Positions 3,488 through 18,528 are shown, counted from the stretch's first letter. The stretch is DNA of 24,000 bases from Geobacter sp. (GCA_027356255.1 DAIEGL010000177.1:17405-41404); one strand, 5' to 3'. The notes: a model not told the origin generated them from the sequence alone. Program-made: numbers and translations.

Positions 3488-3663
3488 TTAATATCAATCA
3501 GTAGCATCTCGTACGATCAAGCAATAATTCAGCAGGATCGATCTACCGATCATTGCCCATTCCGGAGTAAGGTAAGACCATAACAAGTCCCGCTGCAGGG
3601 CGCGCGCCTGCCTGACAGCTAACTGGCAATGACCGGGCTCTAAACGTTTAAAAGGAGAACATC

Positions 3664-4284
3664 ATGAAAGCGATAGCCATAAACGGAAGCCCCAGGCCGG
3701 GCGGCAATACGGAGATCATGCTCAAGAAGGTGCTCGAACCTCTGGCAGCCGCCGGCTGGAGCACGGAGTATCTGCGGATCGGCGGAAAACGTGTGTGGGG
3801 TTGCCATGCCTGTATGATGTGCGTTGAAAGGCGGAATGGACGGTGCGTCATCGAGGAGGATGTTGTTAATGACTACCTGGAACGGATGTATGCGGCAGAT
3901 GCAATCATTCTCGGCTCCCCAACCTATTTCGCCGATGTGACCTCCGAGCTGAAGGCTCTGATCGATCGAGCCGGCTTTGTTGCTCTGGCCAACGGCGGGG
4001 CATTCAGCGGCAAGATCGGCGCAGCCGTCGTGGCCGTCCGGCGCGGTGGTGCGACACATGTTTTCAACACCATAAACAACATGTTCCTCATATCCTCCAT
4101 GATCGTCCCCGGCTCCCTCTACTGGAACCTGGGCGTGGGGACCGATAAAGGGGATGTCATTGGCGACGATGAGGCCATGCGGAATATGAACCATCTCGGG
4201 CAAACAATTGCCTGGCTTGGAGCGGCCATGGCCGCTGTACCTGACACCTCCCCCTTCCCCAAGCTTGCCGTGGAGTTGCATTAA
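3664..4284 (+). CDS. flavodoxin-fold NAD(P)H-dependent FMN reductase / iron-sulfur flavoprotein-like protein
   Basis: 206-aa ORF. SD AAGGAG lies upstream of the ATG. The N-terminus MKAIAINGSPRPGGNTEIM is typical of this family, together with a CxxCxxC-like Cys cluster (WGCHACMMCVERRNGRC) and ILGSPTYF. Confidence 0.75.
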   Translation: MKAIAINGSPRPGGNTEIMLKKVLEPLAAAGWSTEYLRIGGKRVWGCHACMMCVERRNGRCVIEEDVVNDYLERMYAADAIILGSPTYFADVTSELKALIDRAGFVALANGGAFSGKIGAAVVAVRRGGATHVFNTINNMFLISSMIVPGSLYWNLGVGTDKGDVIGDDEAMRNMNHLGQTIAWLGAAMAAVPDTSPFPKLAVELH

Positions 4285-4525
4285 TTGGTGAGAGCCAGGG
4301 GGACGCTGCTTGTTATTTTTCTATTGCCATAGAAAACTGGAGACATCCCACAATTTCTGATTCCATGCCCCGTTCGCTACTCCTCCTCCCTCCGCGGCCC
4401 CAGCGGAATAACCTTCGCCGGCCTAGTCCGCACAGATATCGGCGAGCATGAGATCGGAGACCTCCCCTATCCAGGGCTGGTACACTACTTCCCCTTTTCG
4501 TCCCAGGGCGGAGAGGCTATCCCGG

Positions 4526-5320
4526 TCAAGAGCCCATCGCTCCGATAAAATCAGCTATGAGGCGGACCTGTTCATCAAGCATGTGGCGTCCGTAATGAAT
4601 GGTGCACCCCCTTGCCTTCGCTGCGGCCAGAAGGGGGGTGGTTTCTGGCTTCATAATGATTTCGGCAACGGTCATGGCGGGTGTCAACCTTGTGGTATCA
4701 AACGGCAGCGGATCATCTGCTTTCAGACCGAGCGAGGTGGCGTTTATCACCAGATCGTGACCGGTCGGATCAGCATTTCCCACCATGATCGGCCGATCTG
4801 GAAAGAATTTGGCTACCCGCACCGCAATCTCTTCAGCCTTCGAACGGGTGCGGTTGGCAACCGTCAGGGATGCTACGCCAGCCTCTGCCAGAGCAAAAGC
4901 GATGGCTGCGGCTGCACCGCCCGCACCTATCAGAAGTGCCCGGCGACCAGCCGGATCGTACCCCTGGGAGCGCAACCCGGCTACAAAACCGGCACCGTCA
5001 AACATGTTACCGATCAGCCTGCCGTCCGCTTCCCGCCGCACCGCATTAACCGCACCGATTGCACGCCCGGCATTGCCAAGTTCATCACAGAGGGCGGCGA
5101 CCGCAGTCTTGTGCGGGACCGTCGTGACAAAACCGCCTAGATTCTTCATGGTACGAAAAGCGGTCAGGACGGCCTCAAGCCCCTCTGGATCAACCTGTAT
5201 TGGGACAAGAACCGCATCACAGCAGTTCAGTGAGAAAAGCTCGTTGAACACCTCTGGGGTGCGGACGTGGGAAATGGGGTCGGCGACGATGGCATAAAGC
5301 CTGGTCTTTCCGGTAATCAT
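4526..5320 (-). CDS. shikimate dehydrogenase family protein (AroE paralogue-like)
   Basis: 264-aa ORF with SHVRTPEVFN, VTTVPHK, the Rossmann motif LLIGAGGAAAAIAFAL, and NRT/INATSLG blocks characteristic of the AroE/YdiB family. It is the last gene of the tetR-OYE operon. Confidence 0.75.
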   Translation of the reverse strand: MITGKTRLYAIVADPISHVRTPEVFNELFSLNCCDAVLVPIQVDPEGLEAVLTAFRTMKNLGGFVTTVPHKTAVAALCDELGNAGRAIGAVNAVRREADGRLIGNMFDGAGFVAGLRSQGYDPAGRRALLIGAGGAAAAIAFALAEAGVASLTVANRTRSKAEEIAVRVAKFFPDRPIMVGNADPTGHDLVINATSLGLKADDPLPFDTTRLTPAMTVAEIIMKPETTPLLAAAKARGCTIHYGRHMLDEQVRLIADFIGAMGS

Positions 5321-5359
5321 GTTTAGACGTCGTCCTTTCTGGCTACTGGATTGAGATCT

Positions 5360-6469
5360 TTATTTACTTTTCAAAGCCTCTTCGACAACGCATCTGATGC
5401 CCTTCCCCTCAAGCGCTGGTTTGTAGCATAGATTGCACGATATGCAGGTTGCTTTTCGTTTATCACCAGATCTCCAACGCTGGACAAGATCAGGTTCGCG
5501 GACGAGAGGGCGAGACAAGGATACGTAATCGGTCAGCCTCTCTGTCACCAACATTTCAGCAACCGAGTAGGAGCGAATCCCGCCAACCAGTATCAGTGGC
5601 ACATTGATTTTATCCTTATAGTGCCTTGCAGCTTCGCGATAATAGACTTCATCCGCTTCATTATCCAAACGGCCTGGTCGGAAGGGGACAAATCGGCCAG
5701 AGTCTCTGTTTCCTCCACTTAATTCTATGGCATCGACTCCTGCTTTTTCGAGTGAGATCGCCACCTGAATCATCTCTTCCTTCGTGAAACCACCTTCCTG
5801 AAAATCTTCCGAATTGATCTTGATTAAGATCGGATACTCAGGGCCAACAGCCTGTCGAACGCTCTTCACCACTTCAAGCAGGATACGCGCACGATTTTCG
5901 AGTTCACCTCCATAGTCATCTTTTCTCCTGTTATGCGTAGGTGAGAGAAATTGACTGAGTAGATACCCGTGAGCTGCGTGGATTTGTATTGCATCGAAGC
6001 CCGCCTTTTGGGCTCTTGCTGCGCTCTCGGAAAAATCGGCTACTACCTTACGTATCTGCTCATGTGTCATTTCTCTGATGATCTGACCGGTCTCATTCTC
6101 ACCTGATGATGGGGCATAAACATCAAGTCCGGTAATTTCGGAGGCCGCATAGCAACCTGCATGGGATAGCTGCAGGGCGATCTTGCCGCAGTTGTCATGA
6201 ACACTTTTGACCATTTTTTCTAGTCCCGGGAGCAGGCTGTCGTTATCAGCTCCCAATTGCCGAAGCCTTGCCTGTCCTGCCTTGTTTACATAGGCATGGC
6301 CAGTAATAATCAATCCGACTTCTCCTTGAGCAAGCTTGCAAAAAAAGTCTGCCAGTTCTGGAGTGCAGGCTCCGCAATCATCAGCCATGCCTTCCCAGGT
6401 TGCAGATCTGATAAAGCGGTTTCCGAGGTTCAGACTTTTTATGTTGGTAGATTCAAACAGCTTAGCCAT
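5360..6469 (-). CDS. NADH:flavin oxidoreductase, Old Yellow Enzyme family
   Basis: The track ORF is 5360..6535. I start at MAKLFESTNIKSLNLGNRFIRSATWEGM, which has SD CAGGAG upstream. OYE hallmarks are present: HGYLLSQFLSPTHNRRKDDYGG, and a C-terminal Cys cluster CISCNLC. Confidence 0.8.
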   Translation of the reverse strand: MAKLFESTNIKSLNLGNRFIRSATWEGMADDCGACTPELADFFCKLAQGEVGLIITGHAYVNKAGQARLRQLGADNDSLLPGLEKMVKSVHDNCGKIALQLSHAGCYAASEITGLDVYAPSSGENETGQIIREMTHEQIRKVVADFSESAARAQKAGFDAIQIHAAHGYLLSQFLSPTHNRRKDDYGGELENRARILLEVVKSVRQAVGPEYPILIKINSEDFQEGGFTKEEMIQVAISLEKAGVDAIELSGGNRDSGRFVPFRPGRLDNEADEVYYREAARHYKDKINVPLILVGGIRSYSVAEMLVTERLTDYVSLSRPLVREPDLVQRWRSGDKRKATCISCNLCYKPALEGKGIRCVVEEALKSK

Positions 6470-10692: not shown

Positions 10693-11085
10693 TCAAATCA
10701 GCTCCTTGCTCCAGAATTGCATGGGGTGGTCCCGTTTGATGCCATCGGTCTCACGCCAGATGAAATGAGTGGTTACCCCGTGGAGTCGGACAAACTCGGT
10801 ACGGGCAAGGAATCTTGTGATGGGGATGTAGTCACGCGGGCGCAAGGGGTGATCGTCGGGCTGCTCAACCGTGGCGCAGGTGAGTCTGCGGTAGCGGCCG
10901 AGAGAACGGATGTTGCTTTCCAGTAGGGCAAGCAGCTTCCGGCCCAGTCCACAATTGCGGTAGGCCGGGCGAAAGAGCAGTTCCCCGACGTAATATGTCT
11001 CGTTGAGCGGAAATGTTGTCCCGGCAAAGGCGTCAAGCATCTGGGCGTCTTCATGGATAAGAGGCATGCCCGTACTCCCCGTCAA
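10693..11085 (-). pseudogene. GNAT family N-acetyltransferase, apparently 5'-damaged (frameshift and/or truncation at the island edge)
   Basis: The ORF carries the acetyl-CoA motif RNCGLGRKLL only about 45 residues from its start, so the N-terminal third of a GNAT fold is missing. Beta-strand-like sequence (TLVFIGSVAIGLTVYEMTEYVEVRHIDGEYG) continues upstream in another frame (track ORF 11051..11272). It then runs into the AT-rich island. Confidence 0.45.
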
Positions 11086-11249: not shown

Positions 11250-11597
11250 ATGGAGCAGGACGAAATAAACAAAAAAATCTGTGCTCACCAGAGCGCCAAC
11301 CGAAATTATATTGATCAAGGTATCAGTGTACTAGAACTGGCGCAAAATGCTGCTGGACGGTATTCTATGGAAGAAGTGGCTAAAAAAAGAGAAATACTAA
11401 AATCAGTGCACTCGAACTCCACTTGGAAGGATGGGCAACTCGTGTCTGATTACAGGAAACCCTTTGACCAACTTGCACTTACGAGCCATGCCTATAGAAA
11501 GAAAAAGGTCGCTTTTCCTGAGAAAAGCGACCTTTGTACGTTTTGGCTCCCCAGCGCGGACGGTTCTGGGCACTGGGAAGAGCGCTTATCGCTGTAA
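11250..11597 (+). pseudogene. C-terminal fragment of a second (older) serine recombinase
   Basis: HQSANRNYIDQGISVLELAQNAAGRYSMEEVAKKREILKSVHSNSTWKDGQLVSDYRKPFDQLA resembles, from memory, the conserved C-terminal tail of one class of large serine recombinases. No catalytic or zinc-ribbon part is present. Like the intact recombinase, it reads W-L-P across TGGCTCCCC in the same frame. Confidence 0.45.
11544..11561 (-). repeat. degenerate copy of the tRNA-Asn 3' end (left island boundary repeat)
   Basis: TGGCTCCCCAGCGCGGAC versus TGGCTCCCCAACCCGGAC at 18453-18470: 16 of 18 nt match, in the same orientation. Confidence 0.6.
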
Positions 11598-11647
11598 CGG
11601 TTTGGCTTTGACCCGCCGGTTTTTGGGGCGGGTCGTAAGTGTTGGAA
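11592..11647 (-). repeat. attC-like folded recombination site C (56 bp)
   Basis: Minus strand: TTCCAAC-ACTTAC-GACCCGCC-CCAAAAACC-GGCGGGTC-AAAGCCAAACC-GTTACAG. It has an AAC-ending left box, a GTT-starting right box and a perfect 8-bp stem. It is alignable to sites A and B, with compensatory changes in the stem. Confidence 0.5.
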
Positions 11648-11728
11648 TTGACTTCTTTCCCAGTTTGATTACGGCTCGTAATTCTTTAATAGCAACATAG
11701 CGAGCAGCGTCCACCACCAGAGGACCCT

Positions 11729-12166
11729 TTATTCCAATCGGGTTACATTGATTGTACTACTGACTCCATCAACCTTGAGTTTGTAACTTCCGCCGGAAAT
11801 GTAGATTATTACTTTAGGTCGATAAGAATAATGGTAGGTGTATGCGTAAGACGACTGTTGCCAGATTTGGCCATTCACTAACCTGAAAATTGTTTCACCA
11901 CTCCAACCTTCAAATGAGCCGTCAATTTGGCTTTCAACTACCCCAGAGTTTACAGTGTTTGGTGCAGAATACGTTGATTGTGGTTCTGTATTTTCTTTCG
12001 TTCTACGCCGTAATTCGGGCTCTTTTTGTCTCACTTCGGTGGATGTTTCTCCAATGCATACAGCTTCTACGCTATCTCCATGGTCAATAATCTTACATTC
12101 TGAATAAGACAATTTTGTTGCCATAATTATTGGCATCGCTAGGCATACTGCTAATACAATTCTCAT
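11729..12166 (-). CDS. secreted hypothetical protein (signal peptide plus conserved-looking C-terminal beta domain)
   Basis: The track ORF is 11729..12310. I start at MRIVLAVCLAMPIIMATKL, a signal-like N-terminus. The C-terminus is IDGSFEGWSGETIFRLVNGQIWQQSSYAYTYHYSYRPKVIIYISGGSYKLKVDG. No family was assigned. Confidence 0.55.
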   Translation of the reverse strand: MRIVLAVCLAMPIIMATKLSYSECKIIDHGDSVEAVCIGETSTEVRQKEPELRRRTKENTEPQSTYSAPNTVNSGVVESQIDGSFEGWSGETIFRLVNGQIWQQSSYAYTYHYSYRPKVIIYISGGSYKLKVDGVSSTINVTRLE

Positions 12167-12246
12167 AATATTCCCCATTGAGTGATGAAGAGTAGTTCCG
12201 TCCCCCATATTTGAGCACTTCTTCAACCAATATCTGTTGCTTGACA

Positions 12247-12696
12247 CTATCCAGGAATAATTATGAAAGTGGCTGGATCTATGCCAAATGCCTGAAGCAT
12301 CCTTTGGCACCTGCGGTTTAGTTGTGCGGCATTTTCATTGGTGTCCACAATGATATCAGTTCCCTTTATTCTTTCGTATCTGTGTTTAAAATCAGAAACA
12401 GATTTAGAAAAGTACTTTTTTGTTCTCCCCTGAATCTGAAAAAGGTCATCCGCCTGACTGGGAAATTTTCTTATAATAAGATGCGTTAATTTTACAAATA
12501 CATCTTTATGTGATTCAGCTTCGTGCATCCTATTGTCAAAAATGAATCCAGACACACCTGTCCCAGTTAGTTCTCCTCTATTTTTACTGAGATCAATATT
12601 TATTTTAGATAGTAACGCCAGGGCTTTGGTCTGCTCCTCTGGTTCCATTTTTTGTAAGTTGATTCGTAGATCTTCAAATGTATTCTTGACGCTCAT
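12247..12696 (-). CDS. hypothetical protein (149 aa), first ORF of cassette C
   Basis: SD GGAGGG lies 4 nt before the ATG, and the start is 20 nt after the GTTGGAC box of site B. No recognisable motif. Confidence 0.6.
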   Translation of the reverse strand: MSVKNTFEDLRINLQKMEPEEQTKALALLSKINIDLSKNRGELTGTGVSGFIFDNRMHEAESHKDVFVKLTHLIIRKFPSQADDLFQIQGRTKKYFSKSVSDFKHRYERIKGTDIIVDTNENAAQLNRRCQRMLQAFGIDPATFIIIPG

Positions 12697-12716
12697 TTGT
12701 CCCTCCTGAAGTTATA

Positions 12717-12777
12717 GTCCAACGGGGCCGGCCTTCACCTGTCAGGTTTTAGGGCAGGTGAAAGGACGTGGTTATAC
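12717..12777 (-). repeat. attC-like folded recombination site B (61 bp)
   Basis: Minus strand: GTATAAC-CACGT-CCTTTCACCTG-CCCTAAAACCTGA-CAGGTGAAGG-CCGGCCCC-GTTGGAC. The stem is 10 bp with one extrahelical base. The right box fits GTTRRRY exactly. Confidence 0.6.
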
Positions 12778-12866
12778 CTCGCCGTTATTGCCGTTTGGTG
12801 TACTTCAATAGGTTGTCTATTTCTTTTACTATCAAGGAAGGGTTCGTATAAACGTCACCCTGACAA

Positions 12867-13154
12867 TCATTCGGCGGGTGAATGACCTATTTTTGTGAGC
12901 TTAATTTCTGGGGCAAACTCGTATCCAATTTCAGTATTGTCTGAAGCTAATTCAGCAATCCATCCATATTGTTTAAGCCAGTTCAAGAAGGCTTCCATGT
13001 TTAGTTTGTTGAGTCCAGACATTTTTTCATGTGGGCCGTTTGGAAAGGCATTAGATGCTTCGCTATAGTGGATCAAAAAAACAAACTTTTTCTCTTTGTC
13101 AGCTTCAACTAACGCTTTGCGGATAGCATCAATCCATTTTTGGCTGTCGGACAT
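12867..13154 (-). CDS. hypothetical protein (95 aa), second ORF of cassette B
   Basis: The track ORF extends to 13253, but the internal ATG 13154 has SD AAGGAG 7 nt upstream and avoids overlap with the previous ORF. Product: MSDSQKWIDAIRKALVEADKEKKFVFLIHYSE... No family was assigned. Confidence 0.5.
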   Translation of the reverse strand: MSDSQKWIDAIRKALVEADKEKKFVFLIHYSEASNAFPNGPHEKMSGLNKLNMEAFLNWLKQYGWIAELASDNTEIGYEFAPEIKLTKIGHSPAE

Positions 13155-13209
13155 TTTGTTTCTCCTTTTGGGTTTAATCCGGGCCTTAAACCCGAAAAGT
13201 TCTGTTAAT

Positions 13210-13401
13210 TTATTTTTTGTCCCGCAACTTTTCAGCGGCTTCGCGTTCTGCATCTTCTTCTGCTATCAGATCGTCAATCGTAGGAGGGTGTGATTTGTCC
13301 CATTCTTCGTTAAATTTAGCGTCTCTGTCATCTTCATTTCTTTTGTTTAAAAGATATGCGATGGCACATAAGGCAGCAAAAATTAACCATAATACGTTCA
13401 T
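13210..13401 (-). CDS. small membrane-anchored protein (63 aa) with an acidic tail, first ORF of cassette B
   Basis: SD AAGGAGG lies 7 nt before the ATG, and the start is 22 nt after the GTTATGC box of site A. It has an N-terminal TM segment (VLWLIFAALCAIAYLL) followed by a highly charged tail. Confidence 0.55.
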   Translation of the reverse strand: MNVLWLIFAALCAIAYLLNKRNEDDRDAKFNEEWDKSHPPTIDDLIAEEDAEREAAEKLRDKK

Positions 13402-13423
13402 ATCAAAACCTCCTTTATTGGGG

Positions 13424-13484
13424 GCATAACGTGGTGAGCCTTCACCTGCCGGTTTTCAGGGCAGGTGTAAGGCGTTGGTTATGT
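13424..13484 (-). repeat. attC-like folded recombination site A (61 bp)
   Basis: Minus strand: ACATAAC-CAACG-CCTTACACCTG-CCCTGAAAACCGG-CAGGTGAAGG-CTCACCAC-GTTATGC. CATAAC and GTTATG pair. The stem has one extrahelical base. The TAA stop of the 61-aa ORF lies inside the ACATAAC box. Confidence 0.6.
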
Positions 13485-13664
13485 ATTCGGTTTTTCTTTA
13501 CAAAATGCGCCAATAGTGAAAAGACCGAAAATAACCGCGCCAACAAGACTAAAAATTTTTCCTAAAGTGAGTTGAGAAAAAGGAACGCTGAAAATACCTT
13601 CTGGGTAGAGAAAATAAGCTATTGTTCCAAAAACAGCGGCAAAAACAATCCTAGCATATATCAT
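13479..13664 (-). CDS. small two-TM membrane protein (61 aa)
   Basis: SD GAGGG lies 5 nt before the ATG. There are two hydrophobic helices (IVFAAVFGTIAYFLY; IFSLVGAVIFGLFTIGAF). Confidence 0.5.
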   Translation of the reverse strand: MIYARIVFAAVFGTIAYFLYPEGIFSVPFSQLTLGKIFSLVGAVIFGLFTIGAFCKEKPNT

Positions 13665-13764
13665 GATTACCCTCGCTTATTAGACACTTGATATTTTGCT
13701 TATTTATCGTGAAGGAAAGTCATTTACTTTTAACGGAGGTTCGCTGGTTATGAATCGAGATAAT

Positions 13765-14109
13765 CTAATGCATTACTTTCTGGGGTGTTGGCTCGTTTTG
13801 GCGACTTTTATTATATGCGGGGTCGGCTACCACTTGATTCACGGCTGGATTAGAGAAATGGGATGGCTCCCTCTGAGTAAATTCTTTGTACGCAAGGTAA
13901 AGAGTCAAGATAAGGATGGCAGCGGTCATGGCTAACATCCAATTGTCAGACCTTCCCTTTCTTCTATGTAACTCAACTTCGGCTTCATGTCTTTCCAGGC
14001 CGTTATAATTACCACCGTCAGGAGGTATTCCGTCAATGATGCGAAGTAACTGCTTATCTTCCAGCTTTCTGAAGTGTTTTGTACTTTTGATAACCTCTTC
14101 ACGTTCCAC
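13765..14109 (-). CDS. hypothetical single-TM protein (114 aa, GTG start), first ORF of cassette A
   Basis: GAGG lies 5 nt upstream of the GTG, and the start is 21 nt after the GTTATGT box. It has a soluble N-terminus, a TM segment (WMLAMTAAILILTLYLAY), then a tail. Competing ORFs exist in other frames or on the other strand (13932..14120 minus, 13696..13935 plus), so frame choice is uncertain. Confidence 0.35.
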   Translation of the reverse strand: MEREEVIKSTKHFRKLEDKQLLRIIDGIPPDGGNYNGLERHEAEVELHRRKGRSDNWMLAMTAAILILTLYLAYKEFTQREPSHFSNPAVNQVVADPAYNKSRQNEPTPQKVMH

Positions 14110-14130
14110 ATATGCCTCATTTCTTTAATT

Positions 14131-14137
14131 ACATAAC
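14131..14137 (-). other. array-proximal GTTATGT box (candidate attI-type crossover point)
   Basis: Minus-strand GTTATGT is the exact complement (7 of 7) of the ACATAAC left box of site A, which lies 647 bp downstream. No hairpin precedes it. Confidence 0.4.
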
Positions 14138-14263
14138 TCGTAATTGATCAGACCCGGCCATCATCCCACCAAATCTGATTCTTCTGCATTAGTACTAAAA
14201 CACAATTGACGTAACCATCTAAATTTATTATAAACACCATATCAATAAATATTCCAATTTGAG

Positions 14264-14285
14264 TGTTGGCCGTTACTGGCCAACA
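14264..14285. repeat. perfect 8-6-8 dyad TGTTGGCC-GTTACT-GGCCAACA (candidate tyrosine-recombinase core-type site)
   Basis: 8-bp perfect inverted arms around a 6-bp spacer, lying in non-coding DNA between the recombinase gene and the first cassette. The arms contain GTTGG/CCAAC, the same pentamer as the boxes of sites B and C. Confidence 0.35.
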
Positions 14286-14468
14286 TACCGGATGTTTTCA
14301 GTCCTGAACTTTTATCGACTAAATGGTTGTCTTCAAGTTCAATCTGTGTAGGCTAATATTCATTAGCCCGCAATATAATTCAGCGTAGAACAAATGTCAA
14401 AGGAGATAACATGCTTCTAATCCCAAATGCGGTGTTTATCCGGTATATTACGCATCTCAGTTCACGTA

Positions 14469-14502
14469 ATGTTGCTACAGACCGTTAATAGATGTTGCTA
14501 CA
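14469..14502. repeat. two direct copies of ATGTTGCTACA, 23 nt apart start to start
   Basis: Exact 11-mers at 14469-14479 and 14492-14502, immediately next to the recombinase terminator. They could be protein-binding (arm-type or DR-type) sites. Confidence 0.35.
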
Positions 14503-14503
14503 C

Positions 14504-14555
14504 AAAAAAAAGGGGCTTGTCCGTCGTTGCCAAAGGCAGCGGCGGACAAGCCCCT
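14504..14555 (-). terminator. Rho-independent terminator of the tyrosine recombinase gene
   Basis: Perfect 13-bp stem AGGGGCTTGTCCG / CGGACAAGCCCCT. On the minus strand it is followed by a T run of 7-8. It starts 12 nt after the stop codon. Confidence 0.8.
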
Positions 14556-14566
14556 CTTCACATTGT

Positions 14567-15376
14567 TTACTTGTAGTGCTGGGTTACGCTCTCCCGGCTA
14601 TGGCCGAGATACTCTGCGATTTCTTTATCAGGTTTACCTTCCCTGTCCCGCTGTTGAGCGGCTTCGTGCCTATACAAGTGGAGATTCGCCATATTCTCTT
14701 TAGTAGCTCCTGCGCGATTGAGCTCGTTTGAAAATTTTTTGAGACCCTGTTTAAGCGATAGGTTGGAAGGAATCAGCGATTTCTGTCCATTGTCCTTAAT
14801 ATATTGCAGGACTTTTTGCACTAAATCTTTTTGATCCTGTCTTTCAATGGGAACATCACGAGGCCGACCGCCCTTTGCTCCCGCAACGACTATCCGCTCT
14901 TGCCCGTCTTTAACTATGACTAGGTTTGAAAGAAGAGCTTCTTCTCTGCGTAGACCAAACCCTTTTGCCATGTCACATGCTAGCCCCAGCCATTCATCCT
15001 TTGCATAGAGCTTGTCTCGGGCGTCAGTCATTTTATCGAGGTCACCATGTTTTGGTTGGTACCTGTCTGACCGGTCAATCCCAAGGTCAATGTTATGACG
15101 TGGTACTATGTTGTCTTTGCCGATGGCGTGGGCAATTTCGCGCATTGCTGTCATGTAATTAGACCTTGTGCTCGCCGATAAATTATCATTTTCAAGTTTC
15201 TCAATAAATCGCTCCACATGCTTTGTTTTCATGTCGCGTATTGACTGCAGCCCCTGCGTTGACATGAAATCAGCAATACGTCCGATATTGCCAACCAGTT
15301 TCTGCGTAGTTCCTGAACCCTTGCCATAGTTTTTACCGACCAATCGCTTTGCCTCATTTCCCAGTTTACTGCTCAT
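14567..15376 (-). CDS. tyrosine recombinase/integrase (short, non-IntI type)
   Basis: I start at MSSKLGNEAK, with SD AAAGGAG upstream. Catalytic signature in order: GLRREEA (Arg), KGGRPRDVPI (Lys hairpin), HLYRHEAA (H-x-x-R), LGHSRESVTQHYK (His...Tyr). The protein ends one residue after the Tyr. Confidence 0.8.
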   Translation of the reverse strand: MSSKLGNEAKRLVGKNYGKGSGTTQKLVGNIGRIADFMSTQGLQSIRDMKTKHVERFIEKLENDNLSASTRSNYMTAMREIAHAIGKDNIVPRHNIDLGIDRSDRYQPKHGDLDKMTDARDKLYAKDEWLGLACDMAKGFGLRREEALLSNLVIVKDGQERIVVAGAKGGRPRDVPIERQDQKDLVQKVLQYIKDNGQKSLIPSNLSLKQGLKKFSNELNRAGATKENMANLHLYRHEAAQQRDREGKPDKEIAEYLGHSRESVTQHYK

Positions 15377-15429
15377 AGTTGTTCTCCTTTCCTGTTGTAG
15401 TGTGCCAAAAGGGTTGAGTGAATTTGCCA

Positions 15430-15446
15430 CACAGCTTATAGCTGTG
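15430..15446. promoter_or_regulatory. palindrome CACAGCT-TAT-AGCTGTG upstream of the tyrosine recombinase gene
   Basis: 7-bp perfect arms, 54-70 nt upstream of the ATG at 15376. Possibly an operator. Confidence 0.3.
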
Positions 15447-15631
15447 CCCTTAGGCGACTCTGATCCGTAAATCAGACGCCCTTCGGTTCCTCAATTTTTT
15501 TCCGAACCCGCAGGTTTGGTCCTTGGTCTCAACCAAGAAATCGAGGAGGCATACTGCCGTATCCTTAGTGGAAGACGGAGACGGCACATGACACAGGAGG
15601 GATGTAATGAGTGGTTTTGGGGAGAGGTGCG

Positions 15632-15768
15632 ACGCGATGAGAAAAATCCGTCTCCTCGACGGATATTTCTCATCGCGTGTGAACGCCCGCTGGGCGGGCG
15701 GCGGCCGGCCAGCCGTCTCTTTCTCATTGCTTCGCGTTTGAAAAAGAGACGGCTGGCGAAAGGCGTTC
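15632..15768. other. cluster of long, GC-rich hairpins (candidate structured RNA or DNA site), unassigned
   Basis: Stem 1: 15632-15652 pairs with 15658-15678, 21 bp with one mismatch, loop TCCTC. Stem 2: 15708-15722 pairs with 15743-15757, 15 bp perfect, 20-nt loop. Stem 2 is enclosed by GAACGCC (15681-15687) / GGCGTTC (15762-15768). The 7-mer GAGACGG/CCGTCTC occurs four times. Confidence 0.5.
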
Positions 15769-16371
15769 GAAGGAAATTGCTTTGTTGACCGAACGTGGAG
15801 GGATTTATGGTAATGGCTGCACCGTGATCTCGATGGATGTATAGATGACGAGATGAATTGGTGTGAGCTCTAATGTTGGTAGGAGATGTGTCTTACGACA
15901 CAGTTGAACCTTAAAGCGGGGATACTGATAGTTTTACTGACATGGCGGCAAAGGTTGTCTGGAATGCGTAGGCATGGTCAGAAGGTTAATTTGCTGGATC
16001 AGCATTCTGGATGTTTTTGAGTGTTGTTACTTAAGGAAACAAAGATTGATGAAGTGGGCTCTCGTGGTGGGTACTTGCTGATGTGGCGCAAGATCAAGGA
16101 CAAGAGTCACTACTGGAAAAAAAGTGAATACATCGTCCGATGCTATATGCAGGCGACTGGACGGGGTGTCGCTTGCAGCTTTGACCAACTATGGAGTTGG
16201 ACTGAAAATCCTTGGAGGAAATAATATGTGCTAAGTATCTACCAAAAATAAAATACTTTCAAGAGAAAAATAAGTAGAAGAGCTTTTGATACGTCCCATA
16301 AACAAATTATATATTGTTTTTATATTCGACAATAGAATTTATAAGTAACTATGATAGCACTAAAGTAATAT

Positions 16372-16407
16372 GATTCAAGAAATACCAAATTTGGTATTTC
16401 TTGAATC
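16372..16407. repeat. perfect 36-bp palindrome in a very AT-rich stretch
   Basis: GATTCAAGAAATACCAAA|TTTGGTATTTCTTGAATC, 18 + 18 nt with no mismatch. A second imperfect hairpin (AGGTTGTA-A7-TACAAACCT) follows. Confidence 0.9.
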
Positions 16408-16526
16408 TGTATAGGTTGTAAAAAAATACAAACCTTTAAAGAAATATACATTATCATTAAATAGTAAAGGTTGCCGGCCTGCACAAGAGTCATCGTTAGA
16501 TTTAATAACCTTGACTAGGTGTGCAA

Positions 16527-16817
16527 ATGAGTAATAAGATTTATAGCAATAGACACTATGATCTATGCCACAGTAGCTTCAGAAAATATGATAATTCGTG
16601 TGACAAGATATTCAGCAGACAGAACTCTTGTAAGGATTGCCAAGGCAAGTACAGGTTAATCACTTCCCGATTTGAGGGTTTGGACAATAATGTATTCGCG
16701 AAGGAGCTTGACTTAATTGAGGCTTTCTTGCCCGAATTACTCGATATTCTTTCAAAGACAACTGTTGACGTGGAAGCACCGGGAAATCAAAATCACCGAG
16801 ACCAGCGGGAAAAATGA
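16527..16817 (+). CDS. hypothetical Cys-rich small protein upstream of the serine recombinase
   Basis: 96 aa from the ATG. The N-terminal half has C-x11-C...C-x2-C spacing (possible zinc ribbon) and the C-terminal half is acidic and helical (ELDLIEAFLPELLDIL). The SD is weak. It is co-directional with the recombinase and 63 nt upstream of it. Any role, for example as a directionality factor, is speculation. Confidence 0.35.
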   Translation: MSNKIYSNRHYDLCHSSFRKYDNSCDKIFSRQNSCKDCQGKYRLITSRFEGLDNNVFAKELDLIEAFLPELLDILSKTTVDVEAPGNQNHRDQREK

Positions 16818-16880
16818 AGAGTATCACATGCTCTGATTGTAGGATTGATCCGCTAGTAAGAAGGGAACAGGAGTTAAAAC

Positions 16881-18494
16881 ATGGCAGTAGCGCTCTATGC
16901 ACGTGTTTCAACGGCGAAACAACATGAACGGGATCTGTCTATTCCTGATCAGATCAGGCAGATGCGCGATTGGTGCAAACAAAATGGTTATTTGATTGCA
17001 ACCGAATATGTTGAGCAAGGGCTTTCGGCCACTAATGATCGTCGGCCAGAGTTCCAGCAGATGATTGCAGAAGCTTGTACCAAGCCCTCCCCATTCGAGG
17101 CCATCGTAGTTCATAGTCTCTCACGGTTTTTTCGTGATCAATTAGAGCTGGGCCTGTATGAGAGACAATTGAAAAAGTACGGCGTAAAACTCATTTCTAT
17201 TACGCAGATAACTTCTGATGATGCTGCCGGTGAGATGATGCGGCAAATCCTAAGTATGTTTGACGGTTATCAAAGCAAGGAAAATGCGAAACATACTATG
17301 CGAGCCATGAAAGAAAATGCTCGCCAAGGCTTTTTTAACGGATCAAAACCTCCTTTCGGTTATAAGGTGGTTGAAGCTGATATGCCTGCGAGGAATGGAA
17401 ACAAGAAACGGCTCGAAATTGAGCCGACTGAAGCAGAAGTCGTAAAGAATATCTTTGCCCTGTATCTTGGTAAAGTAGGGAAAAGCTATGGAATCAAGGG
17501 AATCGCGTCTCATCTGAATTCGCTTGGGATGACCGCAAGGGGGAGACGCTGGGCTCGTGGTTACATTAACAAGATTCTTTCCAATACCGCCTATATCGGC
17601 GAATATTATTTTAATAAAACCAATGCAAAAAGCAGGAAAGGCAAGCCTGAGACGGAATGGGTTCTTGTTAAAGTTCCTGAAGTCATTGATAAAGAAACAT
17701 TCGAAAATGCTCGGGAACGAAGAGAGGAGCGGCAACCTTCAAAGAAAAATCCTGCACAGGAGTCATCACCGACTCTATTGACAGGTCTACTCAAGTGCGG
17801 GGAGTGTGGCGCAGGAATGACCCTCGCCACAGGCAAAAGCGGTCGCTACCGTTACTATAAATGTACGAACAGAATCAACAAGGGAAATGAACTCTGCAAA
17901 AGCAAAAATATACCAATGGATAAGCTTGATGAAATGATATTGAAGACAATTGGCGAGAAAATTTTTACCCCAGCTCGCGTACTTGCGATGATCAAAGAAT
18001 TGCAGAAACGGATGCAATTGTCTTTATCAAAAAATGACGATGCATTGAAAACTCTAAGGAAAGAGATGGAAGAGTTGAAGCTAAAGATGGATCGTCTATG
18101 TGAGGCACTTGAAAATGGCCTTTTACCCCAAGAGGTGATTCGTGACCGCTCGCAGAACCTTCAGGTAAGACGTCAGGCAATCCTTAAAGAAATGGCAGGA
18201 TTAAAGCGGCGGCAAGAATTGCCGTTCAAGGATTTGGGGCACCAAAAGGTTTACGATTTCTGTCAGGTGCTCAATGCAAAGCTTCATGACCCTGCATCTA
18301 ATTTTGGTAAAGAATACCTGAAAATGCTTGTGGAAGAAATTTGCGTTGAAGAGAAGGAGATTAAGCTGAAAGGGAAACTTACCGATATTGCAAGCGCTGT
18401 AAACAAAACGGCTCTGGGACTCACTATTGGAGTGCCCAGAGCCGGTAATGATTGGCTCCCCAACCCGGACTCGAACCAGGGACATGGTGGTTAA
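16881..18494 (+). CDS. large serine recombinase (resolvase catalytic domain, recombinase domain, zinc ribbon, coiled coil)
   Basis: SD AGGAG lies upstream. The N-terminus VALYARVSTAKQ carries the catalytic Ser. Other features: SLSRFFRD, GYQSKENAKHTMRAM, the zinc ribbon LKCGECGAGM...YYKC and a long coiled coil. The last 14 codons (18453-18494) are antisense to tRNA-Asn. Confidence 0.9.
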   Translation: MAVALYARVSTAKQHERDLSIPDQIRQMRDWCKQNGYLIATEYVEQGLSATNDRRPEFQQMIAEACTKPSPFEAIVVHSLSRFFRDQLELGLYERQLKKYGVKLISITQITSDDAAGEMMRQILSMFDGYQSKENAKHTMRAMKENARQGFFNGSKPPFGYKVVEADMPARNGNKKRLEIEPTEAEVVKNIFALYLGKVGKSYGIKGIASHLNSLGMTARGRRWARGYINKILSNTAYIGEYYFNKTNAKSRKGKPETEWVLVKVPEVIDKETFENARERREERQPSKKNPAQESSPTLLTGLLKCGECGAGMTLATGKSGRYRYYKCTNRINKGNELCKSKNIPMDKLDEMILKTIGEKIFTPARVLAMIKELQKRMQLSLSKNDDALKTLRKEMEELKLKMDRLCEALENGLLPQEVIRDRSQNLQVRRQAILKEMAGLKRRQELPFKDLGHQKVYDFCQVLNAKLHDPASNFGKEYLKMLVEEICVEEKEIKLKGKLTDIASAVNKTALGLTIGVPRAGNDWLPNPDSNQGHGG

Positions 18495-18528
18495 CAGCCA
18501 CCCGCTCTACCGACTGAGCTATTGGGGA
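18453..18528 (-). tRNA. tRNA-Asn (anticodon GTT), 76 nt with encoded CCA
   Basis: Hand-folded sequence: TCCCCAA-TA-GCTC-AGTCGGTA-GAGC-G-GGTGG-CTGTTAA-CCACC-ATGTC-CCTGG-TTCGAGT-CCGGG-TTGGGGA-G-CCA. All four stems pair, with one G-U in the T stem. Confidence 0.9.

Follow-up and report, generated by a model that had tools for sequence, protein, structure and literature searches.

Clusters of attC sites that lack an integron integrase are known as CALINs (Cury et al. 2016, PMC4889954). Insertion of cassettes by the integron integrase, IntI, at genomic GWT sites (attG) has been demonstrated, and small CALINs have been suggested to arise in this way (Loot et al., bioRxiv 10.1101/2022.09.11.507474). 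The subject of this report is an array of three attC-bordered gene cassettes in 24,000 nucleotides of DNA from Geobacter sp. (GCA_027356255.1 DAIEGL010000177.1:17405-41404); we call this whole stretch the window and count positions from its first letter. We hold with good confidence that the array has no integron integrase of its own and is the cargo of a 6.9-kb island in a tRNA-Asn gene of a Geobacter-like bacterium. Arrays of this kind are a class already described, to which the element belongs; it has attC sites of a short family specific to the Geobacteraceae, and its context, a 6.9-kb serine-recombinase island, is new.

The array resembles described CALINs and attC x attG insertions in being small and co-oriented, in having no intI nearby, in its first junction (a bare GTT with no attC half), and in the promoter upstream. 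It differs from them in lying within a tRNA-integrated island, directly behind an unrelated tyrosine recombinase. Three attC sites fall within 1.9 kb, well inside the 4-kb spacing by which two or more sites without a nearby intI are called a CALIN, and the adjacent intI of a complete integron is missing. As had been claimed from the sequence, no intI is present in the 24-kb window: a tblastn search with IntI1 gave no match, and the tyrosine recombinase next to the array (269 aa) scores 30.6 bits against TIGR02249, for which the cut-off is 265, and judging from that score is not an IntI.

Sedentary chromosomal integron arrays whose attC sites are near-identical and species-specific, such as the Vibrio cholerae repeats, likewise combine an attC core that is homogeneous between sites and between related genomes with variable outer 4-mers, permuted from neighbour to neighbour, and with ORFan or toxin-antitoxin cassettes. 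Compared with such arrays, the sites in the window are much shorter (56-61 nt), the cassettes number only three, and the integrase is not adjacent.

attC sites and cassette boundaries

We number the sites from the promoter, along the minus strand, so that attC1, attC2 and attC3 are sites A, B and C of the original prediction. The sites and the cassettes that they delimit, with their open reading frames (ORFs), are as follows; the slash in G/TT marks the cut.

14131-14137, minus strand: junction 0, GTTATGT, the first cassette boundary (G/TT), 7/7 complementary to the left box of attC1
13424-13484, minus strand: attC1, ACATAAC-CAACG-CCTT(A)CACCTGCC-CTGAAAACC-GGCAGGTGAAGG-CTCACCAC-GTTATGC
12717-12777, minus strand: attC2, GTATAAC-CACGT-CCTT(T)CACCTGCC..-..ACAGGTGAAGG-CCGGCCCC-GTTGGAC, with left arm CACCTG.. 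and right arm ..CAGGTGAAGG
11592-11647, minus strand: attC3, TTCCAAC-A-CTT(AC)GACCCGCC-CCAAAAACC-GGCGGGTC(A)AAG-CCAAACC-GTTACAG
13430-14136, minus strand: cassette 1, 707 bp, with ORFs at 13765-14109 (114 aa) and 13479-13664 (61 aa)
12723-13429, minus strand: cassette 2, 707 bp, with ORFs at 13210-13401 (63 aa) and 12867-13154 (95 aa)
11598-12722, minus strand: cassette 3, 1125 bp, with ORFs at 12247-12696 (149 aa) and 11729-12166 (145 aa, with a hydrophobic N-terminus)

A repeat search and a covariance model both recovered the three dyads where they had been predicted, on the minus strand and as one repeat family. The model, R1, was built from 18 copies found in other genomes plus the three window sites, and it scored attC1, attC2 and attC3 at 82.8, 69.2 and 52.9 bits, with exact coordinates and all on the minus strand. 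With the filters off, the next match in the 24-kb window reached no more than 12 bits, and none lay outside the island. attC1 and attC2 are 78% identical over 55 nt. All three sites have terminal 7-mers ending in AAC and beginning with GTT, and these AAC and GTT triplets are invariant in the 18 members elsewhere. The common plan is a 7-nt AAC box, a 5-nt spacer, a 12-bp stem with a bulge in its left arm, an 8-nt spacer and a 7-nt GTT box; DNA folding places one bulged left-arm base in both attC1 and attC2. When folded as single-stranded DNA, either strand of attC1 pairs its outer boxes as well as its bulged inner stem (z about -4.7), and attC2 and attC3 in their linear context form the inner stem only. 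For junctions reconstituted as in the circle, each of the three sites has its outer boxes paired in the minimum-energy fold of the bottom strand (7, 5 and 6 bp). Searches outside the family were negative: Rfam returned nothing for the sites (sub-threshold matches to psRNA14 and snoZ30a were noise), and DNA searches with the array, near and distant, against E. coli genomes and plasmids found nothing.

attC3 departs from the plan in having a left spacer of 1 nt. It had been predicted to keep the structure with different, compensating stem bases, and this is so: two compensated changes distinguish GACCCGCC/GGCGGGTC from CACCTGCC/GGCAGGTG. On one point the prediction needs correcting: the spacers of attC3 are shortened. 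Compared with its closest relative (L020:5420-5479, GTCCAAC-AAGG-CTTACGACCTGCC...GGCAGGTCAAAG-CCATGCCC-GTT), attC3 has 3 nt fewer between left box and stem and 1 nt fewer on the right. These losses make it a lesser site than attC1 or attC2: we infer that attC3 was functional when its cassette formed and has decayed since, and it is probably a poor recombination site now.

The boundaries of the units carry the cassette signature. If each unit had been cut at G/TT and circularised, its left box should complement the GTT box with which that unit starts, which belongs to the preceding site. A recount agreed throughout with the figures given originally: complementarity to the upstream box versus the site's own box is 7/7 versus 6/7 for attC1, 6/7 versus 5/7 for attC2, and 6/7 versus 4/7 for attC3. 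Against the all-against-all background of the family, in which 6 or more matches occur with a probability of 0.18 and 7 with 0.037, the combination of 7, 6 and 6 in the window has a joint P of about 0.004. On this sequence evidence, the permuted boxes are the circular-permutation mark of integron cassettes, and each unit, running from the TT of one GTT box to the G of the next, reads as a circularisable cassette cut at G/TT. The unit lengths of 707, 707 and 1125 bp from G/TT to G/TT are likewise confirmed. We rejected duplication as the source of the equal length of cassettes 1 and 2: they have only the attC in common, and the cassettes in general share no sequence beyond it.

The repeat family in other genomes and among integrons

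A strict pattern, CCTTNCACCTGN{11,15}CAGGTGAAGG, scanned against one genome per species, hit 33 loci; genome bins of Geobacter, Geobacteraceae or Desulfuromonadales account for about 20. These related loci give the consensus nnnnAAC-CAACG-CCTTGCACCTGCCCTAAAACCCGGCAGGTGAAGG-CTCACCCC-GTTnnnn: the core is nearly invariant, and the four bases outside AAC and GTT vary from copy to copy. Both spacer combinations of the window (CAACG with CTCACC.C, and CACGT with CCGGCCCC) are likewise found together elsewhere. Searching 8-kb loci around the outside copies with R1 revealed co-oriented arrays of 2-4 sites, with 0.4-1.6 kb from one site to the next, and several of these (L044, L027, L029 and others) include sites with unrelated stem sequences, in which the structure is kept and the sequence varied. 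Dispersal of the repeat through the genome in the manner of repetitive extragenic palindromes (REPs) or miniature inverted-repeat transposable elements (MITEs), which had been named as a reason to abandon the prediction, is not what we see: the window has three copies, on one strand and all within the island, and in other genomes the strict scan hit one or two loci each. A highly conserved attC family of about 61 nt could be useful for mining the cassette pools of the Geobacteraceae and Desulfuromonadales.

The permuted boxes recur in these arrays. Among adjacent pairs of sites in other genomes, 13 of 14 have 6-7/7 complementarity to the upstream box (eight have 7/7), with a mean of 6.36/7 versus 4.5/7 for the all-against-all family background (resampling P < 5e-6); to their own GTT box these left boxes are complementary at 3-7/7, with a mean of 4.4/7. 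One pair of loci also shows a cassette in two settings. L025 (2100-2846) and L042 (932-1678) have in common a 760-bp unit with a Phd/RelE-like toxin-antitoxin pair, 90% identical, which begins just past a GTT box and ends right after GTTATAC(C); different units follow in the two loci, each with an attC starting GTATAAC. Elsewhere in the family, variation thus has its boundaries at the GTT boxes, as predicted, both in this mosaic and in the 13 of 14 permuted pairs. The 3' site of the shared toxin-antitoxin cassette itself has an atypical layout, with no AAC box at the expected place.

The family can be tied to true integron integrases. In the Geobacter sp. locus L043, a 98-aa ORF (5121-5417), 140 bp from a family site and beside dnaE, matches TIGR02249 with an E-value of 2.7e-33, a better match than to any Xer model, which identifies it as a C-terminal fragment of IntI. 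In L050, tblastn with IntI1 (a query 100% identical to plasmid copies) found a full-length intI broken by frameshifts at 4574-5514 on the plus strand, from which a minus-strand array of small genes (DUF4288, glyoxalase, DUF4279 and others) diverges; every gene of that array is followed by a match to one or both of our attC models. L050 thus has the standard layout of an integron, and the repeat family is therefore an integron attC family.

Several observations on intI in this group stand apart from the array. The gene is often broken, as in the L043 fragment and in the frameshifted copies L050:4574-5514 and L051:9489-10426. We considered a programmed -1 frameshift and dropped the idea: in L051 a Leu codon has simply lost 1 nt, and for L050, where the indels differ, assembly errors are possible. 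More than 2000 database proteins match the L043 C-terminal fragment at E <= 1e-20, and the best 120 that were listed are all 74-170 aa long; many of these short matches (P0090-P0209) may be truncations at contig ends. A 251-aa protein in L039 (4776-5531) was rejected as an integron integrase, its match to TIGR02249 being 208 bits, under the cut-off, and in two separate stretches. Its gene is directly upstream of a 373-aa ORF (3650-4771), which by eye we take to be a putative IS91-type transposase, and close to a family attC site.

For comparison with well-characterised integrons, we extracted class 1 attC sites from the integrons of six plasmids (aadA1, aadA2, cmlA1, estX, dfrA14 and others). 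Nine of the ten sites parsed fit a single layout: R'' (7 nt), 5-6 nt, 3 bp, a left-arm bulge, the two stem arms, 3 bp, 5-6 nt and R' (7 nt). The exception is arr-3, which fails the inner 5-bp stem test; lnuF requires a left spacer of 6 nt. A MAFFT alignment of the full-length sites was unusable for a model, as it split the right arm. The model R2 was instead made from nine class 1 sites only, with the centres trimmed and three spacers padded with N, and is crude for those reasons. Run over both strands of the window with filters off, it placed attC2 first (19.9 bits, E 0.0036) and attC1 second (13.5 bits, E 0.22), at exact coordinates and on the minus strand. The original prediction had asked for attC-model hits at all three sites; this weak, class 1-built model ranked two of them at the top and missed attC3. 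As a control, R2 scored the attC of aac(6')-IIc, on which it had not been trained, at 38.6 bits. With default filters it misses most Geobacter sites, and its sensitivity is therefore low.

The likeness to class 1 sites extends to the details of the plan: a 7-nt R'' ending in AAC, a 5-nt spacer, a helix of 3-4 bp, a left-arm bulge, a stem, and an R' starting with GTT. The window family also has the left-arm motif xxT-G-CACC (CTTGCACC) found in estX and cmlA1. Unlike the class 1 sites, the window family has a 4-bp lower helix and a terminal loop of only 9 nt.

These comparisons also bear on the possibility that the dyads are ordinary intergenic hairpins (REP-like elements, terminators or RNA-stability elements) whose AAC and GTT boxes were simply inherited from one repeat. 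GC-rich stem-loops 3' of ORFs would suit that explanation, as would the 78% identity of attC1 and attC2. However, the sites have no T-run after them, and the family was not found in the other 17 kb of the window. The permuted-box rule holds in unrelated genomes, where arrays hold unrelated stems, adjoin intI and show cassette mosaicism at the GTT box, and the sites are matched by a model made from clinical attC sites. We regard this explanation as close to refuted.

The island and the arrival of the cassettes

The island and the features upstream of the array are listed here.

18453-18528, minus strand: tRNA-Asn (GTT), the integration target of the island (ARAGORN; Rfam tRNA, 65.9 bits)
18452-18462: island end, an 11-nt direct repeat, TTGGCTCCCCA, which is the 3' end of the tRNA
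11543-11553: opposite island end, a displaced copy of the tRNA 3' end, TTGGCTCCCCA, 38 nt past attC3
11504-11535, minus strand: terminator hairpin just outside the island end, a 14-bp perfect stem plus a T-run
16881-18494, plus strand: large serine recombinase, 537 aa, with the Pfam domains Resolvase, Recombinase and Zn_ribbon_recom
14567-15376, minus strand: tyrosine recombinase, 269 aa, with PF12835 (Integrase_1) and PF12834, co-oriented with the array and directly upstream of it
14508-14558, minus strand: terminator-like hairpin 3' of the tyrosine recombinase gene, an inverted repeat plus a T-run
14372-14400, minus strand: sigma-70-like promoter, TTGACA-17-TATATT (11/12), directed toward the array, predicted by consensus scan alone
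15377-15760, minus strand: conserved hairpin-rich non-coding stretch, from the alignment of relatives, not part of the array

The 11-nt sequence TTGGCTCCCCA is the sole 11-mer of the tRNA region that recurs between 10 and 16.9 kb, and its presence at both ends delimits the island to about 11554-18452 (6.9 kb). The array lies wholly inside, its end 38 nt from the boundary. We read the hairpin at 11504-11535 as the former terminator of tRNA-Asn, left behind on insertion. The G+C content is 0.40-0.41 in the cassettes, 0.44 in the remaining island and 0.56 in both flanks. A recombinase beside a tRNA gene, a 3' repeat at the far end and a shift in base composition are the usual marks of a tRNA island, and the earlier claim that the array rides on a tRNA-integrating island is upheld by the 11-nt repeats, the Pfam domains and the G+C shift. 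The likely integrase, from its domains and position, is the 537-aa large serine recombinase: its top NCBIfam match is CcrB-like, under cut-off, and the 3' end of its gene overlaps the tRNA-Asn gene.

An exact-sequence look-up of the serine and tyrosine recombinases led only to near-identical copies of the island. Two of the contigs are 100% identical and one is 99.95% identical (6 mismatches), and the array is the same in all; the window sequence is also carried by a metagenome contig (ERZ27236847 k141_1029005).

We think it most likely that the cassettes were delivered by IntI acting in trans. The large serine recombinase would have put the island into the 3' end of tRNA-Asn, and IntI from a resident or donor integron would have inserted cassettes, by recombination of the attC x attG type, at a plain GTT of the island that lies about 235 bp downstream of the strong predicted island promoter. 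Insertion may have been stepwise, at the promoter-proximal junction, or may have involved one three-cassette circle recombining through attC3. Either route would give the ends that are observed: island-G/TTATGT on the left and attC3-G/TTACAG-island on the right. The island promoter would now transcribe the cassettes, the first ORF of each having its own start 20-22 nt past the junction, and re-excision or exchange would occur only where IntI is supplied. The covariance model of the family finds no attC-like left half upstream of junction 0 in the window. Read in this way, the locus is a clean natural case of integron cassettes outside an integron, in an environmental anaerobe and on a tiny island, behind a promoter. 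Its junctions are compatible with IntI insertion at a plain GTT and support the recently proposed attG route of cassette spread, by which cassettes could pass between genomes without an integron platform; the known workings of integrons are unchanged by the finding.

The 370 bp between junction 0 and the terminator of the recombinase gene (14138-14507) could instead be what is left of a transplanted integron platform: an attI plus a cassette promoter, whose intI was lost or replaced on joining the island, with junction 0 as the old attI. The strong promoter-like site upstream of junction 0 fits such a history, the stretch shows no relation to what follows the recombinase gene in related islands, and decay of intI is common in the group (the L043 fragment and the frameshifts of L050 and L051). 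We nonetheless consider a remnant platform unlikely: tblastn found no trace of intI in the window, the region has no similarity to any fetched integron locus, and the recombinase gene that borders the region is complete, unrelated and co-oriented, and has a terminator of its own. Nor is an inverted box recognisable beside GTTATGT as a partner for junction 0.

Several points weigh against our preferred reading of an IntI-delivered CALIN. We infer the action of IntI in trans, with a search for intI that spanned the 24-kb window. The 370 bp match nothing among the fetched loci, and the empty-site form of the island (...CGAG/TTACAG...; CGAGTTACAG; ATCAATTACGAGTTACAGCGATAAGCG) was not found there; taken together, these two results make insertion at an attG indistinguishable from import of a fragment carrying attI plus promoter. 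All the island contigs share one array, so the locus is uninformative on cassette variation, with no gain or loss visible. Among the sites themselves, the spacer before R' is 8 nt in the window family versus 5-6 nt in class 1, the scores of R2 are modest, and that model missed attC3 over the window. Finally, two ORFs per cassette is unusual.

The position of the tyrosine recombinase raises a further possibility, namely that the island has an integron-like platform that works without IntI, in which the PF12835 recombinase recombines folded attC hairpins and uses the island promoter and GTTATGT as its attachment site, loading cassettes there behind the promoter. The order of features suggests as much (recombinase, terminator, promoter, junction and cassettes, all co-oriented), no IntI is present in the window, and the conserved hairpin-rich region upstream of the recombinase gene suggests that the enzyme may recognise folded DNA. 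If true, this would be a second, independent recombinase lineage running an integron-like system. The relatives of the recombinase point elsewhere. Those of 62-64% identity lie in other islands with a regular order of genes (Arm-type integrase, HTH_17, a gene-free gap, the recombinase, XRE, two small ORFs and HNH), and past HNH their cargo is type I restriction-modification or BREX. L010, the closest relative (71%), has the same upstream part, on a contig that stops 278 bp beyond the recombinase gene. None of the 62-71% relatives examined has a match to either attC model, and we rejected the idea that relatives also carry attC-like arrays, the Geobacter ones holding XRE, HNH and defence cargo. 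Remoter relatives are on plasmids as small as 4.4 kb, with Rep and two small ORFs only, and a scan of metagenomes for relatives gave only 4 short loci. The attC family, for its part, is tied to true IntI genes. We therefore judge an IntI-free platform very unlikely. Because the relatives examined lack arrays and homology with the related islands ends at the terminator (14508-14558), we assign the PF12835 recombinase to the island backbone, with a presumed part in maintenance or mobilisation, and not to the cassette system.

Five of the related islands (L004, L005, L006, L011 and L012) have a common backbone, and their cargo diverges about 0.5 kb past the HNH gene; among it are type I restriction-modification, BREX-like and metallophosphatase/HerA-like genes. 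They are a defence-carrying island family in Geobacter.

The hairpin-rich stretch at 15377-15760, about 380 nt upstream of the PF12835 gene, is kept in L010:2400-2789, L004:9610-10000, L011:9610-10000, L060, L061 and L062. Compensatory changes occur in 35 of its 89 predicted pairs, and one stem of 13-14 bp is invariant (CCGTCTCTTT...AAAGAGACGG) with a variable loop; Rfam has no match for the region. Judged from this conservation, it may be a structured RNA, or else a region that is oriT-like or binds the recombinase. Relaxases resembling tyrosine recombinases, with an oriT upstream, are known: MobK, MpsA and TcpM (PMC8152469, PMC6414798). The window recombinase is like them, by description, in having a tyrosine-recombinase fold, relatives on small plasmids and islands, and a hairpin-rich region upstream of its gene; it differs in keeping the N-terminal SAM-like domain that is reportedly absent from those proteins. 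By this analogy it is a candidate relaxase of the MobK/MpsA type, which we offer as a lead.

Cassette contents and other features of the locus

The start codons nearest the junctions lie 21, 22 and 20 nt past the GTT box in cassettes 1, 2 and 3, within the predicted range of 20-22 nt. The Shine-Dalgarno sequences are also as described, GGAGG and AGGAGG preceding the ATGs of cassettes 2 and 3 and only GAGG preceding the GTG of cassette 1, and the stop codon said to lie in a left box is the TAA of the 61-aa ORF, inside ACATAAC. Searches of Pfam, NCBIfam and PADLOC gave no above-threshold family for any of the six cassette ORFs, the usual situation in chromosomal cassettes. The 149-aa protein of cassette 3 has, at residues ~40-148, a domain of ~100 aa common to 120 representative proteins and without a Pfam match. 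This domain is C-terminal in proteins of very diverse length, and one protein of 1147 aa has up to five copies.

The spaces between paired ORFs hold some structures of their own. In cassette 1, the family model has a stemless 26-nt match between the two ORFs (13728-13753, minus strand, TCATAAC-CAGCG-..-CTCC-GTTAAAA). Its score is at noise level (11.8 bits, E 0.36), and it is notable for its place and strand alone; its left box is 6/7 complementary to junction 0. From its boxes it is possibly a collapsed attC whose stem-loop has been deleted, which would hint at two former cassettes now fused. In cassette 2, a hairpin at 13166-13197 has 12-13 bp with one bulged C (CTTTT(C)GGGTTTAA...TTAAACCCAAAAG) and AATTAAC before it, and is possibly an RNA element or a former attC. 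We rejected the inter-ORF hairpins of cassettes 2 and 3 as hidden attC sites, because they have no GTT box after them and the cassette starts already have their partners in the outer boxes.

Two further features lie away from the array. Positions 16372-16407, within an AT-rich, gene-free stretch (15800-16880), form a palindrome whose perfect 17-nt arms flank a centre of 2 nt (ATTCAAGAAATACCAAA-TT-TGGTATTTCTTGAAT), and two independent assemblies (L003 and L065) break there. About 460 bp outside the island, a 130-aa ORF (10693-11085, minus strand) matches only the middle of GNAT acetyltransferase models and may be a truncated or divergent gene; an intact GNAT of 170 aa is present on the opposite side of the island.

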